From assembly GCA_045536565.1 (NCBI GenBank), contig JAZSNU010000003.1:38994-70993 (forward strand): a stretch of DNA of 32,000 nucleotides. Direction: 5' to 3'. Shown here in pieces: positions 1,299 through 11,163 of the stretch. Each line of letters starts with the position of its first letter. Position 1 is the stretch's first letter. Made by a program: the position numbers and the translations under genes. The notes under the pieces were generated by a model. It was not told where the DNA came from, did no database searches, and was given only the letters and a program-made list of their open reading frames with translations. The stretch comes from Clostridia bacterium. Its GTDB lineage: Bacteria; Bacillota; Clostridia; TANB77; CAG-465.

Positions 1299-2132
1299 AT
1301 GCTAGAGGTTAAAAATGTAAGAAAAAAATTTGCAGAAGTTGTAGCGGTAGATGATGTAAGTTTTAATTTGCAAAAGGGAAAAATACTAGGACTTCTTGGG
1401 AAAAATGGAGCAGGTAAGTCAACAATATTTAGAATTATACTTGGAATATTAGAAGCGGATAATGGACAAGTGTTAATAGATGGCAAAAAATACAGCATAA
1501 AAGATAGTAAGAAGATTGGCTTTTTGCCAGAAGAGGGGAGTTTGTCACAAGAGTTAACAGTATATGAACAATTATGCTTTTACGGCAGTCTTAAAGGTAT
1601 GTCAAATGAAGAAGTATTGGAAAGTTTAAGTAAATGGCTTGTAAAATTTGACATAGTAGAATATATGAATAGAAAGATAAAGGAATTAAGTAAAGGAAAT
1701 AGACAGAGAATACAATTTATTGTTTCTATATTGCACAACCCAGACTTAATAATACTAGATGAGCCTTTTTCTGGACTTGATCCGTTAGGTGTTGAAATGT
1801 TTAAAGAAATACTACTTGAATTAAAAAGAGAAGGAAAAGCAATAATATTTTCTTCACATAGAATGGAACATGTTGAGATGTTTTGTGATGATATACTATT
1901 AATAGATAAAGGGAAAACACTTTGTTATGGAGATTTATTAGATATTAAGAAAAACTATTCTAAACAAAAAGTTATATATATGGAAAATGGTATAAAAAAA
2001 GAAGTCGTGATATCAAAAGAAAAGGTAGAAGAGTATATAGCAGGTGTGGATAACAAAGATAGTATAAAAGTAGAAACATTATCTTTAAATGATATATTCA
2101 TAGATAAGGTAGGTGCACATGATGATAAATAA
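1299..2132 (+). CDS. ABC transporter ATP-binding protein (ABC-2/NatA-YhaQ type)
   Basis: Walker A GKNGAGKST, signature LSKGNRQR, Walker B LIILDEPFSGLD, H-loop SSHRM. The ORF overlaps the start of the downstream permease. Confidence 0.9.
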   Translation: MLEVKNVRKKFAEVVAVDDVSFNLQKGKILGLLGKNGAGKSTIFRIILGILEADNGQVLIDGKKYSIKDSKKIGFLPEEGSLSQELTVYEQLCFYGSLKGMSNEEVLESLSKWLVKFDIVEYMNRKIKELSKGNRQRIQFIVSILHNPDLIILDEPFSGLDPLGVEMFKEILLELKREGKAIIFSSHRMEHVEMFCDDILLIDKGKTLCYGDLLDIKKNYSKQKVIYMENGIKKEVVISKEKVEEYIAGVDNKDSIKVETLSLNDIFIDKVGAHDDK

Positions 2133-4302
2133 AAATAGTATGAACATAGCAAAATTTAGTTTCATAAATGCTATTAAGAGCAAAGGTTTCATAATATACA
2201 ACGCAATACTGTTAGTAGTTATACTTATTGCAACAAACTTCACGACTGTAAAAGATATTTTCCAAAGCCATGACATGTTTAAAGGTACAATATATAATGT
2301 AAAGGTGATAGATGAACAAGGATATATTTATGAAACATTAGAAGAATCTCTTAATGTGGAAAATGTGGACAAGGTAGAAAAAATTTCTAATATTAACGAA
2401 TATTCAGAAGAAGATATTAAAAAAGATGAAATAGTTGTTAAGGTGTTAGAAAAAGATTCGGAAAAATACTTGCAAATAGTATCAAAAGAATCATTAGATG
2501 GGAAAATGTATACACTTATTTCATCTGCATTAAAAGAAGTAAGAAATCATGAGATAGAAACCAAATATGGTATTTCAGCAGAAGACATTGAAAAATACAA
2601 TTCGGATGTGTATATAGAAAAGAAAATATTAGATACAGATAGTGTTGTAAATAGCGACTATTATCTAATAAAAACTATAATGATTATGATTATATATAGT
2701 TTGATTGTTTTTGGAACGTCAGCGGTTGCATCACAAATTGCAAATGAGAAAACTTCAAAAAGTGCAGAGTATATATTTACATCAGTATCAGCAAAAGATT
2801 ATTTAAACGGAAAAGTAATAGGTGCTAATTTAAAGACAATAGCAAATATGGCTTTTATGGTTCTATATCTATTATTAGGACTTTTAGTAAACTCTGCTAT
2901 TATACAAATATTTGGAGTAAATCCAGTGCAGAATGTAAGTCCAGAAACAACTCAAATGGCTAGTATGATATTTAATATAGATCCACTTGTAATAAAATAT
3001 GTGGTGTTATCATTTGTATATATATTACTTACATCAACACTGCTTTCATATATACAAGCTGCAATGACAGCTAAGGTAAAAAGCATAAATGAAATGGATA
3101 ATTCTCAATCTATTACCCTTACTCTTATTATAATTGCATATGTTGTATCATTTACAACATCAGAGTTTAATAACATATTTACTAAAATAATAGGTAATAT
3201 ACCTGTGTTTTCGATGTTTGCAATGCCGTCTAATTATATAAATGGTGTAACAAGTATTTGGGAAGTAGTATTATCAATTGCAATATTAGTAATATCTATC
3301 GTTATAGCAATGAAAGTAGTAAGTAAAAACTTCAAACAAGATATTCTTGATTTAGGACCAAGAAAAGAAGAAAAAAGAGATGAAAATCTTGAAATAATGG
3401 AAGAAGAATTAAATAAAGTTAAAAAGAACAATACTAAAAGCTTTGCAACTGGCGTGTCGCTTGCACTACTTATGGTTATATTAATACAATCTGTTTTAGG
3501 AGTAGCTATATCATTTTTAATGCCAAATTTAAGACCAAATCAAAATACAGTAGCTATGTCCATAATATTTATATTATCATTCTTAATACCAATTGTAACA
3601 TTAAAAGGTATACTTAATATATCATATAACAAAAAGAATAAAGAAGAAAAGAAGGATATTAAAAAAATATTACTATGGACGATAATGGCAATTCCTGTTA
3701 TGTACTTATCTACATATATTGTTGAACTTGTAATATCAAAGATGGATATGAATCCAACAATGTTAGAAAACGCATTAGTTTTTGATAAGAGTTTATTAGG
3801 AGCTATATTATTCTTTATAGAAATTGCAATATTACCCGCGATATTTGAAGAACTATTATTTAGAAAAGTAATGTTAGATGGTGCTAAAAAGTATGGCACG
3901 GTATTTGGGATTATATTTACAGCTGTTATGTTTGGCTTAATACATATGAATGTGCCACAAGCAATAAATGCTTTTCTTATAGGGTTAATATTTGCGTATT
4001 TAACAATAAAAACAGGTAGTATAATTCCTGCGATGATATTACATTTATTAAATAATGGCACACAAGCGTTATTTATGATAAATGAAGGTAATATACTAGC
4101 ATGTAATATAATATCATATGTAGATATATCACTTGTTGTTATAGGGGGATTACTTCTTGTATATAACATATTAAAAAATAAGAAAGTATTTAATATTGAG
4201 AATATAACAAAATCAGATATAACAATAAAAGGAATACTATCAAACTATTATATGATTGTATTTATAATATTTGTAATGGTTATGTTTAAAGTTCAAATGT
4301 AG
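2113..4302 (+). CDS. Fusion membrane protein: N-terminal ABC-2 type permease plus C-terminal CPBP (CAAX/Abi) intramembrane glutamic protease domain
   Basis: The 729-aa polytopic protein has a hydrophobic N-terminal half typical of an ABC-2 permease. A charged linker (KEEKRDENLEIMEEELNK) joins it to a C-terminal half with the three CPBP motifs: FEELLFRKV (EExxxR), MFGLIHMN (FxxxH) and ILHLLNNG (HxxxN). The ORF begins at GTG 2113; ATG 2119 or 2122 after AAGGTAGG is the more likely start. Confidence 0.8.
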   Translation: MHMMINKNSMNIAKFSFINAIKSKGFIIYNAILLVVILIATNFTTVKDIFQSHDMFKGTIYNVKVIDEQGYIYETLEESLNVENVDKVEKISNINEYSEEDIKKDEIVVKVLEKDSEKYLQIVSKESLDGKMYTLISSALKEVRNHEIETKYGISAEDIEKYNSDVYIEKKILDTDSVVNSDYYLIKTIMIMIIYSLIVFGTSAVASQIANEKTSKSAEYIFTSVSAKDYLNGKVIGANLKTIANMAFMVLYLLLGLLVNSAIIQIFGVNPVQNVSPETTQMASMIFNIDPLVIKYVVLSFVYILLTSTLLSYIQAAMTAKVKSINEMDNSQSITLTLIIIAYVVSFTTSEFNNIFTKIIGNIPVFSMFAMPSNYINGVTSIWEVVLSIAILVISIVIAMKVVSKNFKQDILDLGPRKEEKRDENLEIMEEELNKVKKNNTKSFATGVSLALLMVILIQSVLGVAISFLMPNLRPNQNTVAMSIIFILSFLIPIVTLKGILNISYNKKNKEEKKDIKKILLWTIMAIPVMYLSTYIVELVISKMDMNPTMLENALVFDKSLLGAILFFIEIAILPAIFEELLFRKVMLDGAKKYGTVFGIIFTAVMFGLIHMNVPQAINAFLIGLIFAYLTIKTGSIIPAMILHLLNNGTQALFMINEGNILACNIISYVDISLVVIGGLLLVYNILKNKKVFNIENITKSDITIKGILSNYYMIVFIIFVMVMFKVQM

Positions 4303-4848: not shown

Positions 4849-5550
4849 ATGAAAGATAGCAAAATAATTGTTATTGAAGGTACAGATGGTAGCGGAAAAC
4901 AAACTCAAACAAAACTACTCATGGAAAGACTTAAAAAAGAAGGCTATGATGTATACACTACTTCTTTTCCAAATTATGATGGTGATTCATCAGCGCTTGT
5001 AAAAATGTATTTGGCGGGTAATATAACTCCTGATGCAAATGGAGTAAGCGCAAAGGCTGCATCTATATTTTATGCAGCAGATAGATATATAACATACAAG
5101 CAGCAAATCGAGAAAGAATATCATGAAGGAAAGACAATGGTATTTGATAGATATGTCGGATCAAATATTATTCATCAAGGCTCAAAAATCATATCTGAGT
5201 TATCTGACGAGGATGAGAAAAAAGAAAAATTACAGCAGTTCATATCTTGGCTTGATAATTTAGAACATAATGATTTTGGAATTCCAAGAGCAGATGTTAC
5301 TATTTATCTAAGAGTACCAGTCGAATACACAATAAAACTAAGAGAAGGCAGAAATAACAAATTTACCGGAGGTGAAAAACAAGATATACATGAAGCAGAT
5401 ACAAATCATTTAAAGAATGCGGGAATGTCAGGCATGATGGCAGCAGATATGCTAGGTTGGAATGTTGTAGAATGTGTAAAAGACGATTCTATGAGAACAA
5501 TCGAAGATATTGCAGAGGAAGTATATACTATTGTAAAAAATAAAATATAA
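4849..5550 (+). CDS. tmk: Thymidylate kinase-family P-loop kinase (dTMP kinase-like, long form)
   Basis: P-loop IEGTDGSGKQTQ, a DRY-type motif FDRYVGSNIIHQG, and AGGAGG 7 nt upstream of the ATG. The gene heads a cluster with thyA and folA. Confidence 0.6.
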   Translation: MKDSKIIVIEGTDGSGKQTQTKLLMERLKKEGYDVYTTSFPNYDGDSSALVKMYLAGNITPDANGVSAKAASIFYAADRYITYKQQIEKEYHEGKTMVFDRYVGSNIIHQGSKIISELSDEDEKKEKLQQFISWLDNLEHNDFGIPRADVTIYLRVPVEYTIKLREGRNNKFTGGEKQDIHEADTNHLKNAGMSGMMAADMLGWNVVECVKDDSMRTIEDIAEEVYTIVKNKI

Positions 5551-5566
5551 ACAGGAGGAATTAAAA

Positions 5567-6424
5567 ATGGCAAAATGGGATAACATGTATTTAGATTTGT
5601 GCGAAAAGATTTTAAATGAAGGAGAACTTCATCATAATCGTACAGGAGATGACACATTAAGAATTCTTGGACATACTTTTGAGTTTGATTTATCAGAGGA
5701 ATTTCCTATTCTTACTGTAAAACAGGTTGGTATTAAAGGCCCTGTTATTGAACTTCTTTGGATTTATCAAGCACATAGTAATGATGTATCATGGCTTCGT
5801 GATAGAGGCGTTACTATATGGGATGAATGGGAAGTAGATAGTGACGGTGTGTATAGACAGGATGGCTCAAATAGAATGATAGGAAAAGAATTTGCAGGAA
5901 CAATAGGTACAGCATATGGTTATGTGACTGGTAAGTTCGGTTGGCCTGAAAAGAATATTGAGGAGATAAAAAATAATCCAAATAGCAGAAGAAATATAAT
6001 TGATCTTTGGCAACCTCAATATTTTGATACGGCGGTGCTTCCACCATGTGTATATGGTAGCCAGTTTATAGTAAGCGGTGATACTCTTCATATAAGAGTA
6101 ACACAAAGATCTTGTGATGTAGGCTTGGGCCTTCCATATAATGTTACGCAGTATGCGGCGTTATGCTGTATGATTGCGCAAGTAACAGGTTTAAAACCTG
6201 GTAAGATGCTTTATCAGATTACAGATACTCATATTTACTGTAAGCATATTCCTGCAATTAAAGAACTTATATCAAGAAGAGATAAAGCAATGCTTGCACC
6301 TAAACTTTGGCTTAATCCTGAAATTGATGATTTCTTTAAATTTGATAATTCAAAAGAACTTAAAGATATTAAGCTTATAGGATATGAACATTTAGGTAAA
6401 GTACCTATGGAAGTATCTATCTAA
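5567..6424 (+). CDS. thyA: Thymidylate synthase (ThyA type)
   Basis: NRTGDDTL, ELLWIYQ, catalytic-Cys region LPPCVYGSQF, and RSCDVGLGLPYNV are classic ThyA blocks. Confidence 0.93.
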   Translation: MAKWDNMYLDLCEKILNEGELHHNRTGDDTLRILGHTFEFDLSEEFPILTVKQVGIKGPVIELLWIYQAHSNDVSWLRDRGVTIWDEWEVDSDGVYRQDGSNRMIGKEFAGTIGTAYGYVTGKFGWPEKNIEEIKNNPNSRRNIIDLWQPQYFDTAVLPPCVYGSQFIVSGDTLHIRVTQRSCDVGLGLPYNVTQYAALCCMIAQVTGLKPGKMLYQITDTHIYCKHIPAIKELISRRDKAMLAPKLWLNPEIDDFFKFDNSKELKDIKLIGYEHLGKVPMEVSI

Positions 6425-6436
6425 GGAGGTAATAAT

Positions 6437-6937
6437 ATGGCTATAACAATTATAGCGGCTATTGGTAAAAACAGAGAACTTGGTAAAAAAGGCGACCTTA
6501 TTTGGCATATTCCGGAAGATTTAAAATATTTTAAGGAAAAGACCATGGGGAAAACAATAATAATGGGTAAAAATACTTTTAACTCATTACCTAAACTTTT
6601 GCCAGGTAGAAAACATGTGATTCTTTCAGAAGATGACGACTTTAATAAAGACATTTGTGATTCTATAGTTTTCTATAACAAAGATGATCTTATGGAATAT
6701 ATAAACACAGAACTTAAAGATGAAGATGCATTTATTGTAGGTGGCGCAAGCATGTATACAATGTTTGTTGATATATGTGATAAAATGTACCTTACAAGAA
6801 TAGATGCAGAAGATAAAGAGGCTGATGTGTATTTTCCAAAGTTTAATCCGGGTGATTGGTATGCTGATATGGAAAAAGAATATATATCTAGTGGAATTAG
6901 AGTAAGTCATACCCGTTGGGAAAGAAAGAATAAGTAA
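6437..6937 (+). CDS. folA: Dihydrofolate reductase
   Basis: IIAAIGKNRELGKKGDLIWHIPEDLKYFKEKT, GKNTFNSLP, LPGRKHVILS, VGGASMY. It sits 12 nt after thyA with a GGAGG SD. Confidence 0.9.
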   Translation: MAITIIAAIGKNRELGKKGDLIWHIPEDLKYFKEKTMGKTIIMGKNTFNSLPKLLPGRKHVILSEDDDFNKDICDSIVFYNKDDLMEYINTELKDEDAFIVGGASMYTMFVDICDKMYLTRIDAEDKEADVYFPKFNPGDWYADMEKEYISSGIRVSHTRWERKNK

Positions 6938-6941
6938 TACA

Positions 6942-6983
6942 AAAAGAGATGCTTTAAGTGAAACAAAAGCATCTCTTTTCTTA
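6942..6983. terminator. Bidirectional hairpin terminator after folA
   Basis: 14-bp perfect stem (6942-6955 / 6966-6979). T-rich tracts follow on both strands. Confidence 0.75.
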
Positions 6984-7228
6984 TACAAGTCGTATGTATT
7001 CTGTTTAAAACATACCATCTTAGGTTTAATCTATTAAGATTAAGTTACTCAAAGACTTACTTAAAAGAAGAACGATTTAACAAGGGCGGTTAAACATATT
7101 TGCGGGAAAGGAATAAATCCGCAAATGTCCTTCTTACACTTAGATAGTATACTTATTTTATAACAAAATCAACTACATTTGTGTTAAATGTATATTACAT
7201 AAGTGTTACAAAAACGCTTGGCATATAA

Positions 7229-7254
7229 AAAGTGGTCAAATTCATGACCACTTT
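7229..7254 (-). terminator. Rho-independent terminator closing the RT transcription unit
   Basis: 10-bp perfect stem aaagtggtca / tgaccacttt. On the minus strand the hairpin runs into TTTTTATAT; on the plus strand it is followed by CGAAGG, so it is strand-specific. Confidence 0.7.
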
Positions 7255-7527
7255 CGAAGGCCTAAAATACCTTCTTTTAAATTCTTAAATAGCAATCCGC
7301 CCTGATGAAAAGTTGAGAAGTTTGAGAAGCAAACTTGAAACTTTGAATCAAGGGTAGATTTGGTGTCTTTGCGATAAGAGGTTTTAATTTTTCGCTAACA
7401 AAACTAAAAATATAATTATTCTGGGTGCGAAAAATTACGGACACCAAATTAAAAATAAGTTTTAATAACATTAAAACTAGACATGTTAAAAAATCAAACT
7501 ATAACATGAATAAAATTCGATTGGTAT
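7255..7527 (-). ncRNA. Structured non-coding region 3' of the RT gene; candidate RT-associated template/scaffold RNA (strand inferred)
   Basis: It spans the 273 nt between the RT stop and the terminator. No SD-preceded ORF is present. The region is dense with perfect helices: 9 bp (7458-7466 / 7470-7478), 10 bp (7358-7367 / 7440-7449), an enclosed 11 bp (7385-7395 / 7427-7437), and 7 bp (7318-7324 / 7330-7336). Confidence 0.5.
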
Positions 7528-8631
7528 TTAAGAATGGATTATATCGTTGATACTTTGTTTAAACCTAACACCTGTTTTCTCTTCGTATTTTGCTATAATC
7601 ATTTTTACATATTCAGGTTCGATATACTCATAGTGTGCAACTTTACCTTGCATTTTTTGTGTTTCTTTTTTATTCCATGTTTTACCGTTTTTGTAATCCA
7701 TAAGAAAACTAAAAATTGTAGCTTTTAAAATTTGTTTGTTATTATGACCTATTGTTATATCGCCATTGCTGTTTAGCATAATTCCCGTAATCCAACAACC
7801 ATTTGAATAATATAAATCATAATATTTACACTTTTTGTTATTGAGTTTTTGAGAAGGTAAACACATATTAAGTCTAGTTATTAGTGTTTTCTTTGTATTA
7901 GTAAAATCTCTTTTTGCTTTATACGGATTATCAAACGAAACAAATATATCATCTGCATATCTTGTGTAATGATATCTTCCCATATCGTTTGTCACATAGT
8001 AATCAAAAGGTATCATTAAAACATTACTTAGAAATGGAGAAGATGGTGCACCTTGGGCTAGACCTACTTTTCCTCCAAAATCATACATGCAAACTCTAAC
8101 GATAGGTTCTAAATATGTTGTGTCTAGTACACAAAAAGGATAAACTTTTTCCATTGCAGTCATTATGCTTTCAAAAGAACAATTTCTAAAGAAATCTTTT
8201 AAGTCGTAATGTAAGATAAGTTTATTTCCTTTATGCACTTTAACAAGTTCTTTCGTATTTTTACCTGGAACATACGCATAAGAAGAACATGGGAATAGTA
8301 AATTGAAATCATTAACAAACAAATTTACAAATCTTTTCATAAAATCCTTTAAGAATTCACAAGGCTCATCCATTCGCCGAAGACCACCAGATGATTTTCT
8401 TTTATAATGCGTTTTATATAATTTTTCTATCGTATAGTTTTCCAGAATATGAGAAGCTTCAATTGATAAAGAATAAAATTGTTGTAATAAATATGCATTT
8501 ACCTTTTCAATGTTTTTATCGCTTAATTTACTTACTATTCTGGTTTTGACAACACCGTCTGTGTCTTTTGCTGAATAAAAAAATTCTGGCCTTGGTGGAG
8601 ATAATGTAATTCCCCATTCACTCGTATCCAT
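7528..8631 (-). CDS. Reverse transcriptase, retron/UG(DRT)-like, stand-alone RT plus thumb (367 aa)
   Basis: YKRKSSGGLRRMDEPCEFLK (fingers), AYVPGKNTKELVKVH, LHYDLKDFF, LAQGAPSSPFLSNVLM, YTRYADDIFVSF (YADD at nt 7948-7959), WITGIMLN (VTG-like), then a C-terminal MQGKVAHYEYIEPEY thumb-like region. There is no maturase, endonuclease or effector domain. The SD is AGGAAG, 7 nt upstream of the ATG. Confidence 0.88.
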   Translation of the reverse strand: MDTSEWGITLSPPRPEFFYSAKDTDGVVKTRIVSKLSDKNIEKVNAYLLQQFYSLSIEASHILENYTIEKLYKTHYKRKSSGGLRRMDEPCEFLKDFMKRFVNLFVNDFNLLFPCSSYAYVPGKNTKELVKVHKGNKLILHYDLKDFFRNCSFESIMTAMEKVYPFCVLDTTYLEPIVRVCMYDFGGKVGLAQGAPSSPFLSNVLMIPFDYYVTNDMGRYHYTRYADDIFVSFDNPYKAKRDFTNTKKTLITRLNMCLPSQKLNNKKCKYYDLYYSNGCWITGIMLNSNGDITIGHNNKQILKATIFSFLMDYKNGKTWNKKETQKMQGKVAHYEYIEPEYVKMIIAKYEEKTGVRFKQSINDIIHS

Positions 8632-8688
8632 AAAATCACTTCCTTCTATAATAAATTTATTAAGAAATTTTATATATCTTACAAAATG

Positions 8689-8717
8689 ATTATACTATTA
8701 CAAGGTACAAAAATCAA
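8689..8717 (-). promoter_or_regulatory. Sigma-A promoter of the RT unit
   Basis: Minus strand TTGATT (8712-8717), 17-nt spacer, TATAAT (8689-8694). This leaves only a ~50 nt leader before the RT ATG. Confidence 0.65.
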
Positions 8718-8740
8718 GTTTATTAAAATGATATATACAA

Positions 8741-8768
8741 AAAGGAATGATTTTTAAACCATTCCTTT
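8741..8768 (-). terminator. Terminator of the upstream two-gene small-protein operon (overlaps its stop codon)
   Basis: 9-bp stem aaaggaatg / cattccttt. The minus-strand reading is followed by TTTTGTATAT. Confidence 0.6.
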
Positions 8769-8951
8769 AAGTTCGCTACACTCATCTGCTATTTCTTCTA
8801 CGGGTTTGTATCTCCATGCATAGTCCCAGTCCCAATCGTTGTTTTTGTATAACAGAAACTTAGGTGAACAACCATCTGTGGTTACAGCATATACTTTGTA
8901 TACAGTGGTATGTTTGCTAGTATCGTATTTTGATATAACTTTAAATAACAT
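8754..8951 (-). CDS. Small protein, paralog family member P1 (65 aa, one module)
   Basis: It shares the module M(F/L)xV...(I/V)YxVYxV...FL(L/I)Y...W.W(I/V)D...P with three neighbouring ORFs: MLFKVISKYDTSKHTTVYKVYAV...KFLLYKNNDWDWDYAWRYKP. Confidence 0.65.
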   Translation of the reverse strand: MLFKVISKYDTSKHTTVYKVYAVTTDGCSPKFLLYKNNDWDWDYAWRYKPVEEIADECSELKGMV

Positions 8952-8976
8952 GTTTAAAAATTCCTTTCTTTAAGTT

Positions 8977-9144
8977 TTAGTTGACTATATCGCCTAATTC
9001 AGCAGTATCATCTACATACTCGCAATGGTCCGAATCAATCCATGAAAATGTAAAGTCCCTCCATATCAAAAAGTATGTATACCCATCATCATACCGGGTT
9101 GAAAGCACTTTATAAATATTGTCATGATATTTAATTTTAAACAT
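8977..9144 (-). CDS. Small protein, paralog family member P2 (55 aa, one module)
   Basis: I chose the internal ATG at 9144 because AAGGGAG lies 7 nt upstream. The product MFKIKYHDNIYKVLSTRYDDGYTYFLIWRDFTFSWIDSD aligns with P1, P3 and P4. The ORF track's longer 79-aa version lacks an SD. Confidence 0.6.
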   Translation of the reverse strand: MFKIKYHDNIYKVLSTRYDDGYTYFLIWRDFTFSWIDSDHCEYVDDTAELGDIVN

Positions 9145-9195
9145 AAATCTGCTCCCTTCAAAATTATTTGTTAGATTTACATAAAATCTTAATAT

Positions 9196-9224
9196 ATTAT
9201 ATATTTTGTAGTGCAAAAAGTCAA
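9196..9224 (-). promoter_or_regulatory. Sigma-A promoter of the P2-P1 operon
   Basis: Minus strand TTGACT (9219-9224), 17-nt spacer, TATAAT (9196-9201). Confidence 0.65.
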
Positions 9225-9303
9225 GATTAAATGAATTAAAAGTACGGTATTTAAGTATGTTTTATGGTATACTATATAGGTATAAAAGAGGGGTAATGTT
9301 TGT

Positions 9304-10033
9304 ATGAGTATAGTTTTAGATATTTTAAGAGAACAAAAAGGAATAAAATTAAAAGGAAATATATATTATATAACACAAATTAATTTTGCATATAACAATA
9401 ATAAAATTGAAGGAGGTACTTTAACGAAAGAACAAACTAGATATATATATGAAACTAACACATTGATGTTAGAAGATGGAGAAAAGATAGCGAATGTTGA
9501 TGATATAATTGAAATGTCAAATCATTTTAAATTAGTTGATTATATGTTAGATGTCGCAGATAAAGAATTAACGGAAGATATGATTAAAGAATTCCATAGA
9601 ATATTAAAATCACGGTACATCTGATGAGAGAAAAGATTGGTTTAATGTTGGAGATTACAAAAAGTTAGCTAATGAGGTGGGAGGAAATCCAACAGCAAAC
9701 CCAAAAGATGTATCTAATATGATGAAAAAAATAATAGAAGAATTTAATGCTTTGGAAAAAGTTACCGTTGTAGATATAATAAAATTTCATAATGATTTTG
9801 AAAAAATACATCCATTCCAAGATGGAAATGGTAGGGTAGGTCGTATTATAATGTTTAAAGAGTGTTTAAAAAATAATATAGTACCATTTATAATTCTAGA
9901 CAAGGATAAGATGTTTTATTATAGAGGACTAAAAGAATATGAAAAAGAAAAAGGATATTTAATAGATACTTGTTTAAATGCGCAAGATCAGTATCAAAAA
10001 TTGTTAGATAAGTATATAAAAGAGTTATTATAA
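9304..10033 (+). pseudogene. Fic/DOC family (AMPylase-type) gene disrupted by a +1 frameshift
   Basis: ORF 9304-9624 encodes the N-terminal part (NNNKIEGGTLT). ORF 9677-10033 carries the Fic motif HPFQDGNGRVGR. The second frame is open back to about 9614 (GTSDEREKDWFNVGDYKKLANEVGGNP), so removing one nt near 9612-9616 joins them into a single ~240-aa Fic protein. Confidence 0.8.
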
Positions 10034-10040
10034 GTAAAAA

Positions 10041-10067
10041 AGTATACGCCAATTAATAGCGTATACT
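10041..10067. terminator. Bidirectional terminator between Fic (+) and the P4-P3 operon (-)
   Basis: 9-bp stem agtatacgc / gcgtatact, flanked by A6 on the left (a T-run on the minus strand) and ATTTGCTTTT on the right. Confidence 0.7.
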
Positions 10068-10076
10068 ATTTGCTTT

Positions 10077-10418
10077 TCATTCATCTAAAATGATGCATTT
10101 ATCATGTGGTACACTATACCATTTTCCGTTTTTAGAAAAATAAATCACATTGAAGTTTGTTGAGTCCATAGCCGTGGAATAGTGATTATGAATGAGTTCG
10201 ATTGCTTGGAAAAAAACGACTTGGTTTGTATCAATGAACCTGCATCTTCTTTGAAGTAGTTCGTCATTCGAGTATGGTATAACCTGTGCAGAATCGATCC
10301 ATTTTAATTTATTATTGACAATTGTTAAAAAGAAAATTCTTCCAAACCTTGACTCTACTGAATAAACATCATAAATTGAATTATCATCCTTCTTGTCTAT
10401 TCGCTTAACTTTAAACAT
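10077..10418 (-). CDS. Small protein, paralog family member P3 (113 aa, two modules)
   Basis: The N-terminal half MFKVKRIDKKDDNSIYDVYSVESRFGRIFFLTIVNNKLKWIDSAQVIP matches the family module. The C-terminal half (IELIHNHYSTAMDSTNFNVIYFSKNGKWYSVPHDKC) is a second, more degenerate copy. Confidence 0.65.
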   Translation of the reverse strand: MFKVKRIDKKDDNSIYDVYSVESRFGRIFFLTIVNNKLKWIDSAQVIPYSNDELLQRRCRFIDTNQVVFFQAIELIHNHYSTAMDSTNFNVIYFSKNGKWYSVPHDKCIILDE

Positions 10419-10446
10419 AAAATTTCTCCTTTTGATATAAAATAAT

Positions 10447-10767
10447 CTAGTTTGTTTCGTTTGGTGAAATTATTTCATAGATATTTGCATATACCAAATT
10501 CCACATTTTATTTTCATATATCAAATATTTTGTGGGATCGAAACTTGTTTCTTGATGAACAGCGTAAACTTTATTTATGATTTTTTTATCATCTTTTTTG
10601 GTTATCTCGAATAATTCTTTACATTGTGGTTTGAAATTATTGGCATCGACCCAACAAAAAATTTTATCATTTTTATTGTATACCAAGAATAAAGGACAAG
10701 TGTGACTAGGTCTTATCTCATAAACAGTATAGATTTCTTTGTTATTGATTCGCTGAACAGTTAACAT
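10447..10767 (-). CDS. Small protein, paralog family member P4 (106 aa, two modules)
   Basis: I chose the ATG at 10767 because AGGAG lies 8 nt upstream; the ORF track starts 6 codons earlier at 10785. The product is MLTVQRINNKEIYTVYEIRPSHTCPLFLVYNKNDKIFCWVDANNFKP plus a second copy, INKVYAVHQETSFDPTKYLIYENKMWNLVYANIYEI. Confidence 0.65.
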   Translation of the reverse strand: MLTVQRINNKEIYTVYEIRPSHTCPLFLVYNKNDKIFCWVDANNFKPQCKELFEITKKDDKKIINKVYAVHQETSFDPTKYLIYENKMWNLVYANIYEIISPNETN

Positions 10768-10821
10768 TTTATTTTCTCCTTTCAAAATTATTTTTTAGAC
10801 TAAATGTTCAAATTTAGCTAT

Positions 10822-10850
10822 ATTATATCATATGTTTAGATAATTGTAAA
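10822..10850 (-). promoter_or_regulatory. Sigma-A promoter of the P4-P3 operon
   Basis: Minus strand TTTACA (10845-10850), 17-nt spacer, TATAAT (10822-10827). Confidence 0.6.
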
Positions 10851-10941: not shown

Positions 10942-11163
10942 ATGAGTATTGATTTGCGTAGAAGTGGGATGTGGCTATCCTGAGAGATAGGGAACTTCCA
11001 TGGAGCATGTCTGATTTAAAATCGGGCGGCAAGTATATAATTTGTATTTGCCAAATTTAAAAACTGTTATTTAGATTTGGCTTTCTTTACGGATTAGTTA
11101 CGAAACACACGGGGTAGTGTAAAACTTGCGAGTCCTTGAAATCATAGTAAAGGAGAGATAAAA

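Follow-up and report, generated by a model that had tools for sequence, protein, structure and literature searches.

Organization of the locus

We analysed a 32,000-nucleotide stretch of DNA from a Clostridia bacterium (GenBank assembly GCA_045536565.1, contig JAZSNU010000003.1, positions 38,994 to 70,993; hereafter the window), in which a reverse transcriptase (RT) gene is followed by a structured non-coding RNA (ncRNA). The unit occupies about 1.5 kb of the minus strand (about 8735-7227) and reads, in order, promoter (8717-8689), RT gene (8631-7528), approximately 300 nt of ncRNA, and terminator (7254-7229). Judged from comparison with related loci, this is probably a new retron layout, in which the structured RNA occupies the 3' untranslated region (UTR) of the RT gene and no toxin gene accompanies the pair; it is common to a small family from gut Clostridia and Bacilli. 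The bounds of the unit were set by homology with the locus of its closest relative, L093, which starts just upstream of the -35 element and stops right after the terminator.

The predicted promoter is of the sigma-70 type (TTGATT, 17-nt spacer, TATAAT; 8689-8717, minus strand). It matches the consensus at 10 of 12 positions and leaves a leader of only about 50 nt before the RT gene. Promoter-like matches were frequent in the AT-rich DNA of the window (46 found vs 33 expected); the -35 and -10 elements and the ribosome-binding site were conserved in L093 and L094, and the sequence further upstream was not. The gene upstream ends in a terminator of its own (8768-8741, minus strand; 12 pairs in a terminator scan). 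An inverted-repeat search and folding identified an intrinsic terminator at the 3' end of the unit, 273 nt past the RT stop codon, where the arms 7229-7238 and 7245-7254 pair without mismatch over 10 bp ahead of a T run (AAAGTGGTCA-TGAATT-TGACCACTTT; 7227-7254, minus strand). This terminator is conserved in L093 and was absent from the terminator-scan list, probably because an extension of the stem absorbs the T run. The original prediction, made from the DNA letters, had described a promoter with a short leader, an RT, a structured RNA and two terminators, one of them belonging to the upstream gene, and every one of these elements was recovered.

The RNA 3' of the RT gene resembles an msr-msd transcript

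The minus-strand region 7220-7530 folded at -81 kcal/mol, compared with -48.8 ± 4.6 kcal/mol for dinucleotide shuffles (z = -7.0; 0 of 100 shuffles were as good), in agreement with the earlier description of this region as rich in helices. The RNA carries a terminal inverted repeat. The 17-nt a1 arm (ATTCTTAAATACCAATC; 7519-7535) covers the last two RT codons and the TAA stop codon (7530-7528) and is 94% complementary to the a2 arm (GATTGCTATTTAAGAAT; 7281-7297), which was located by an inverted-repeat search; the two arms enclose 221 nt. Directly after a1 lies a G (position 7518) that was unpaired in the predicted folds and is a candidate branching (priming) guanosine. An unpaired or bulged G was predicted at the inner end of a1 in most family loci.

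Within the domain closed by a1 and a2, two short hairpins are followed by two long ones, all on the minus strand. Stem-loop 1 (SL1; 7482-7508, CATGTTA...TAACATG) was seen in the predicted fold, and its size varies across the family. Stem-loop 2 (SL2; 7458-7478, AGUUUUAAU-GUU-AUUAAAACU) is a conserved hairpin of 9 bp with a GUU triloop, supported by covariation. The presumed msd region begins with a compound hairpin (7358-7449), whose outer stem (ATTTGGTGTC/GACACCAAAT) and inner stem (7437-7385, TAATTTTTCGC/GCGAAAAATTA) are each 100% complementary. A second predicted hairpin of 55 nt (7300-7354) abuts a2 on its 5' side; its structure is kept in L093 despite substitutions. Support for the msd stems came from folding and from pairwise comparison with L093 only. 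Between a2 and the terminator, folding revealed a small hairpin (GAAGG...CCTTC, 7256-7274, minus strand) that is also conserved in L093.

Retron msr-msd transcripts are closed by terminal a1/a2 repeats, with a branching G where the two meet the interior, and contain short hairpins in the msr and a long stem in the msd (Mestre 2020, PMC7736814). The 3' RNA matches this layout in its a1/a2 pair, SL1 and SL2, and the long hairpins, and it has a candidate G next to a1. The original prediction had held that a canonical upstream msr-msd does not fit this locus. It was right that no such RNA lies upstream of the RT gene; an RNA with the look of a canonical msr-msd, complete with a1/a2 and a following G, stands on the 3' side, and therefore a retron RNA does fit.

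Other readings of the region were rejected. The sole open reading frame (ORF) in it (64 aa, 7277-7471) is not conserved, being 22 aa in L093 and 4-38 aa elsewhere, which argues against a small protein gene, as had been predicted. A stop-free frame was conserved on neither strand of the RNA, which makes a Neo-like repeat gene unlikely. The G-U pairs are located on the RT-sense strand, and a functional antisense RNA was rejected on that ground.

The RT belongs to the retron lineage

The RT gene (7528-8631, minus strand) encodes a 367-aa retron-type RT with a catalytic YADD, as judged by the ORF list, profile comparisons and a structure model. All the motifs that had been listed for it are present (GGLRRMDEP, LHYDLKDFF, LAQGAPSSPFLSN, YTRYADD and WITG). 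RVT_1 was the sole Pfam domain in the protein. The AlphaFold model (pLDDT 91) showed fingers, palm and thumb, together with a short N-terminal beta-hairpin/helix, and no extra domain, which agrees with the earlier statement that the RT carries no fused module.

The best PADLOC match of the RT was the retron model RT_II-A (1.5e-47, 160 bits on a 304-position model), followed by RT_I-A (4e-38). All top matches were retron RT models, and no DRT model was among them. When a profile of 15 family members was compared with the PDB, type I-A retron RTs (9n69, Ec83, Ec78) led with E values of 2e-39 to 1e-35; Ec86 (1e-22), a group II RT (4e-14) and DRT2 (7e-10) were weaker. The top Foldseek matches of the structure model were the retron Eco7, I-A, Ec78 and Ec83 RTs (TM 0.66/0.78). 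The RT had been called retron/UG-like. Its retron half was borne out by PADLOC, the PDB profile, Foldseek and NCBIfam; its UG/Abi half was not, since DRT models were weak in PADLOC, NCBIfam (Drt2, 39 bits vs a cut-off of 390; Drt3a, 51 vs 200) and the PDB profile comparison.

Further classes were tried and rejected. A group II intron was discarded because TIGR04416 gave 54 bits against a cut-off of 300, no Rfam intron model matched, and the protein has no additional domain. No direct repeat of at least 30 nt involves the RT region, hence there is no template/variable pair of a diversity-generating retroelement, and the RT of such elements was a weak fold match. Membership in type I-A or II-A was rejected as well, given scores below the cut-offs and no linked PtuA/HNH or NDT effector. 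A comparison with reference families had been proposed as a check; it placed the RT inside no curated family, with scores below every curated family cut-off. In the family, the VTG triplet reads [IVLM][TL]G (ITG here). Together, the profile and structure comparisons indicate that the RT is of retron lineage, nearest to clade 1, yet forms a separate branch.

The RT gene is 77.3% identical to that of L093 at the nucleotide level, with a dN/dS of 0.12 and synonymous sites near saturation.

The RNA is conserved across related loci, with covarying helices

A protein search revealed a small family, with one member 77% identical and about 14 at 33-49%. Fifteen family loci were recovered from metagenome-assembled genomes (MAGs) of Clostridia and Bacilli and from metagenome contigs. 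The RNA was present in 14 of them, lying 3' of the RT gene in 13 and 5' of it in L002 only; the remaining locus, L104, had no recognisable copy in the little flank at hand. The claim that a non-coding partner lies 3' of the RT was thus upheld, and the proposed comparison of the 3' region with the RT across homologous loci showed that the two are conserved together.

Thirteen loci have an inverted repeat whose 5' arm lies over the RT stop codon and whose 3' arm lies 150-370 nt downstream, with sequences specific to each locus. The region preceding SL2 spans 54 to 282 nt between loci. Because of these variable inserts, full-length MAFFT alignment with RNAalifold recovered SL2 only, and the a1/a2 repeat was therefore assessed in two other ways, against the ends of control genes and in an alignment anchored at the RT stop; searches of the RNAduplex kind matched too freely to inform. 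Helix scores had a median of 14 at the ends of RT genes and of 8.5 at 76 gene ends that served as controls, drawn from the same DNA (Mann-Whitney p = 9e-8). In the anchored alignment, both sides had changed in 16 of the 20 a1/a2 pairs, and 0 of 500 shuffles reached the observed covariation. Variants of the stop codon covary with a2: TAG is matched by CTA, and TGA by TCA or, via G-U pairing, by TTA.

SL2 was recovered by RNAalifold on the unguided alignment. Its apex, AAU-GUY-AUU, is invariant, and its lower stem differs between loci yet stays complementary in nearly every one: 98.3% of cells were paired, both sides had changed in 6 of 9 pairs, and 0 of 500 shuffles were as good. The apex 9-mer by itself is not rare (2.7 expected per window); finding it in sense orientation and no more than 300 nt from the RT stop in 12 loci, and as a variant in one more, goes far beyond what chance would give. 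The invariance of the apex suggests that SL2 is likely to be the RT recognition element. Relative to L093, identity is 88% over the RNA region, about 95% in the msr part of it and 77.3% in the RT coding sequence (CDS).

In the presumed msd region, hairpin arms TTT(T)GC / GCAAA(A) were found about 30 nt 3' of SL2 in 9 of 14 loci, compared with 1.4 expected from shuffles; they lie at 7385-7437 in the window and in the same region of L001, L003, L004, L005, L093, L101 and L103. Such sequence conservation in a presumed msd stem is unusual.

L002 differs in its arrangement. There, the RNA, with a1/a2 and SL2, lies about 170 nt upstream of the RT gene with its own promoter and terminator, and none follows the RT gene (the upstream RNA unit and RT arrangement lie at 5298-5726 and 5757-7062 of that locus). 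Since the RNA is a separate upstream unit in this locus, it belongs with the RT and not with the gene end. The a1 arm and leader of the L002 RNA still resemble the 3' end of an RT ORF, which suggests a rearrangement from an RT-first order. The order of RT and RNA can apparently flip, and the RT-first order looks ancestral in the family.

A proposed stand-alone retron with its msr-msd behind the RT

We propose that the unit is a predicted stand-alone retron in which the 3' UTR of the RT gene harbours the msr-msd, and that it represents a distinct Firmicutes lineage nearest to the type I-A/II-A clade; we give this reading a probability of about 0.7. As judged by the cross-locus comparison, the element is real and selectively maintained, and the same comparative evidence shows its architecture and the partnership of the RNA with the RT.

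By analogy with characterised retrons, the following course may be proposed. A single transcript would start at the promoter (8717-8689) and end at the terminator (7254-7229). After translation, a1 (7535-7519), which includes the RT stop codon, would pair with a2 (7297-7281) and close the 221-nt domain, a structure supported by covariation. The RT would recognise SL2 (7478-7458), as its invariant apex suggests, and the 2'-OH of G7518 would prime synthesis on the RNA just 5' of a2. If priming is retron-like, hairpin 7354-7300 would be the first stretch copied; this hairpin, and perhaps 7449-7358, would yield a multicopy single-stranded DNA (msDNA) of about 60-150 nt. A ribosome that completes the RT ORF has to open a1, so that this end of the mRNA could be either translated or folded at any one time, and a newly made RT would presumably act in cis on its own message. 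What we infer is the single transcript, G7518 as the priming site, msDNA as the product, action in cis and any role in defence. As for function, the likeliest role would be a phage-related one, exerted by the RT-msDNA complex via an unlinked host or phage partner.

Several observations weigh against this proposal. The NCBIfam model retron_St85_RT scores the RT at 166 bits, below its cut-off of 235; the best PADLOC retron model reaches only about 160 bits, with many retron types within a few tens of bits. When aligned to Ec83-type RTs, the retron NAXXH motif reads LVKVH here and [LMF][AVG]xxH in the family, where most members keep the H and L, M or F always stands in place of the N. Rfam models, including msr, gave no match in the 3' region in either gathering or permissive mode, the only match in the window being a ribosomal protein leader described below. 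MAFFT and RNAalifold by themselves found no helix other than SL2, and the a2 register in the a1/a2 covariation count was fitted per sequence. The promoter and the single-transcript model draw on consensus matches and on conservation with one relative. The effector screen covered the 32-kb window and the family loci, and an effector encoded elsewhere is possible.

Alternative explanations

The RNA could instead be the template or partner of the RT in a non-retron chemistry, such as DRT2-type rolling-circle, protein-primed or 3'-end-primed synthesis, the product of which would itself be the effector rather than an msDNA-antitoxin complex. Such a reading would accommodate an RT and an ncRNA without any other gene, which is the layout of DRT2, the downstream ncRNA known from DRT3, the degenerate NAXXH motif and the lack of an effector gene. 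We consider it unlikely: the DRT/UG models scored far below the retron models in the searches described above, DRT2 matched the PDB profile at about 1e-10 against 1e-39 for retrons, the RNA bears the retron signature of terminal a1/a2 with an adjacent G, and the lack of a conserved stop-free frame on either strand speaks against a Neo-like product. Somewhat more doubtful still is an ordinary tripartite retron, whose effector would be the small proteins upstream (8754-9216, 10077-10785), the Fic protein (9304-10033) or a protein encoded elsewhere in the genome. An effector accompanies most known retrons (PMC7736814), L093 and L094 encode orthologues of the 112- and 113-aa small proteins directly upstream of the RT, and the Fic gene matches a candidate defence family. 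On the other side, tblastn found the small proteins in no other family locus, and in the window a terminator of their own stands between them and the RT; the Fic gene runs in the opposite direction, carries a frameshift and is missing from the other loci; and PADLOC found no retron effector among the neighbours.

It is also conceivable that the 3' structures merely stabilise the mRNA or terminate transcription, or that the unit is a decaying remnant, so that the RNA would have no partner function. The region does end in a terminator, and hairpins form easily in AT-rich intergenic DNA. The cross-locus comparison largely refutes this explanation, and we hold it to be highly improbable: L002 has the RNA as an independent unit ahead of its RT gene; loci whose RTs share 35-77% identity keep the invariant hairpin apex on top of stems that covary; and the RNA has diverged less than the CDS, in which selection on the RT is purifying.

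Neighbouring genes and the effector question

The genes flanking the unit differ at every family locus and include those for an aminotransferase and UDP-galactopyranose mutase, ksgA and lemA, nrdDG and marR, whiA, tsaD, gatB and purB. No gene for a PtuA-like ATPase with HNH or for an NDT-DNA-binding effector lies next to the RT gene, be it in the window or at the other family loci, and PADLOC detected no retron effector among the window neighbours. The absence of an encoded effector, as originally predicted, was thus confirmed, none being fused to the RT or consistently adjacent to it across the family loci.

In the window, the unit is part of an accessory block (7227-10850) inserted between folA and the S10 leader, with a GC content slightly lower than that of the surrounding DNA (26-30% vs 32-35%; 26-35% over the window, which is low). 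Two plus-strand ORFs in the block (9304-9624 and 9677-10033) together make up one Fic protein of the PADLOC candidate defence family PDC-S04. They cover profile positions 5-104 and 126-238 of 244, and a frame change splits the gene, which is either a pseudogene or a sequencing error. The Fic gene lies on the strand opposite to the RT and is absent from the other family loci. Four small paralogous proteins are encoded on the minus strand (10447-10785, 112 aa; 10077-10418, 113 aa; 8977-9216, 79 aa; 8754-8951, 65 aa). They share an N-terminal motif, FKV...IY.VY...FL...W, and matched nothing in Pfam, PHROG or PADLOC. In L093 and L094, orthologues of the two larger ones (112 and 113 aa) are located directly upstream of the RT, and tblastn found none in any other family locus; in the window, a terminator of their own sets these genes apart from the RT. 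The setting in an accessory island had been taken to fit a defence or conflict role. This argument proved weak, given the frameshift in the Fic gene, the presence of the small paralogues beside the RT in the closest relative only, and the housekeeping surroundings of the other family members.

Outside the accessory block, the window carries plus-strand housekeeping genes, with tmk, thyA and folA up to 6937 on one side, and the S10 leader at 10951 and ribosomal protein genes on the other. This leader (S10-Clostridia ribosomal protein leader, RF03136; 10951-11032, plus strand) scored 38.9 bits, above the gathering score, and lies 5' of the S10 operon; it puts the host among Clostridia-like Firmicutes. 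The segment 6938-7228, between the folA terminator (6941-6979) and the retron terminator, contains a strong hairpin at 7094-7128 and, on the minus strand, a promoter-like TTGATT-17-TATACT. It had no Rfam match and no counterpart in L093. A 729-aa ORF (2113-4302, plus strand) encodes many hydrophobic segments, and its C-terminal part resembles a CPBP-type membrane protease (EELLFR...HLLNN); PADLOC gave no match for it. No tRNA or tmRNA genes were found in the window.

A larger, phage-borne sister clade

An exhaustive profile search yielded about 20 clusters (50% identity) above 300 bits and 750 clusters with E < 1e-30. Below 300 bits, a second tier comprises several hundred proteins of 340-400 aa; all the members inspected were on IMG/VR contigs of 26-54 kb. 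We observed among these a phage-borne sister clade (L006, L014-L018, L106-L123), with RTs of 370-400 aa at 30-35% identity. In L006 and L014-L018, the RT gene follows a ThiF/E1-like gene and precedes a non-coding gap of 200-340 nt, small genes, an SNF2-type helicase gene (phrog_62) and phrog_1366. No close relative was found in cultured-phage genomes, the best match having 26% identity.

Second-tier RTs tend to have a 9-12-bp inverted repeat that involves the RT stop and a site 100-270 nt downstream (p = 7e-4 vs controls), and therefore the RT-first layout may be general to a large lineage. A tentative and more far-reaching possibility, for which the odds are clearly against rather than in favour, is that the whole lineage keeps its msr-msd in the RT 3' UTR, makes and uses it in cis and has no dedicated effector. 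The lineage so defined would include about 20 chromosomal clusters in gut Clostridia and Bacilli and the much larger phage-borne sister clade. The RT-msDNA would then be the output, for example as a phage-encoded counter-defence or replication aid that bacteria later domesticated.

Implications of a proposed RT-first retron

If the stand-alone retron reading holds, the RT-first order is also a natural one, in which the closing helix of the RNA is built from the end of the RT reading frame, and which is held under selection without a neighbouring toxin. It predicts that translation of the RT and folding of the RNA are coupled in cis. What an effector-less retron does is an open question (Mestre 2020), and this unit of about 1.5 kb from Gram-positive gut bacteria offers a handle on it. 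Retron genome editing may also gain small scaffolds from such units, which are RT-first by nature. This lineage has probably escaped surveys that seek msr-msd mainly upstream of the RT.

Comparison with known systems

Retrons have been described as consisting of an ncRNA, an RT and an effector, in a survey that searched both sides of the RT; it reported stand-alone msr-msd-RT cassettes in clades 2 and 11, as well as some sub-branches without detectable RNA (Mestre 2020, PMC7736814). Retron ncRNAs are frequently located immediately upstream of the RT, and engineered RT-then-ncRNA operons work (Khan 2024, bioRxiv 10.1101/2024.01.25.577267). An upstream ncRNA is thus a usual feature of retrons, not a mechanistic requirement. 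The DRT3 ncRNA lies downstream of its RT gene (PMC8632793). The architecture had been said to differ from published ones. A natural retron with a 3' msr-msd that overlaps the RT stop codon was indeed not described in the literature that we searched, the coverage of which was incomplete and is not proof of absence; the claimed novelty was nevertheless overstated, and it is tempered by the published stand-alone retrons and engineered RT-then-ncRNA cassettes as well as by DRT3.

The closest RTs by profile hidden Markov model, PDB profile and fold are those of the type I-A/II-A1 retrons (Mestre clade 1: Eco7/Ec78, Eco4/Ec83, Vch1/Vc95, Sen2/St85), with which the unit shares an RNA that has terminal a1/a2, msr hairpins and long msd hairpins. 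In those retrons the msr-msd is upstream and a PtuA/PtuB or NDT-type effector is present, whereas here the RNA is downstream, with a1 overlapping the RT stop, and no effector is linked. The RT of the unit is also about 40 aa longer at its N terminus and has [LMF][AVG]xxH in place of NAXXH. The Retron-Eco5/Ec107 branch of clade 2 and the actinobacterial clade 11 likewise combine an RT and an ncRNA with no associated effector (PMC7736814), but they belong to other RT clades and host phyla and have their RNA upstream; the Ec107-like PADLOC model gave the RT of the unit only 92 bits.

DRT2 (UG2) resembles the unit in pairing an RT with a structured ncRNA and no separate protein effector, and DRT3 (UG3/UG8) does so in having the ncRNA downstream of the RT gene. 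Both are of the UG/Abi lineage, which is a weak match to this RT, and their RNAs are without the retron a1/a2; conversely, the unit has no Neo-like open frame. The engineered inverted retron operons (promoter, ribosome-binding site, RT, ncRNA) have the same order as the unit and produced RT-DNA (Khan 2024). They are artificial, and their ncRNA does not overlap the RT ORF, unlike that of the unit, in which the closing helix of the predicted msr-msd extends into the last codons of the RT.

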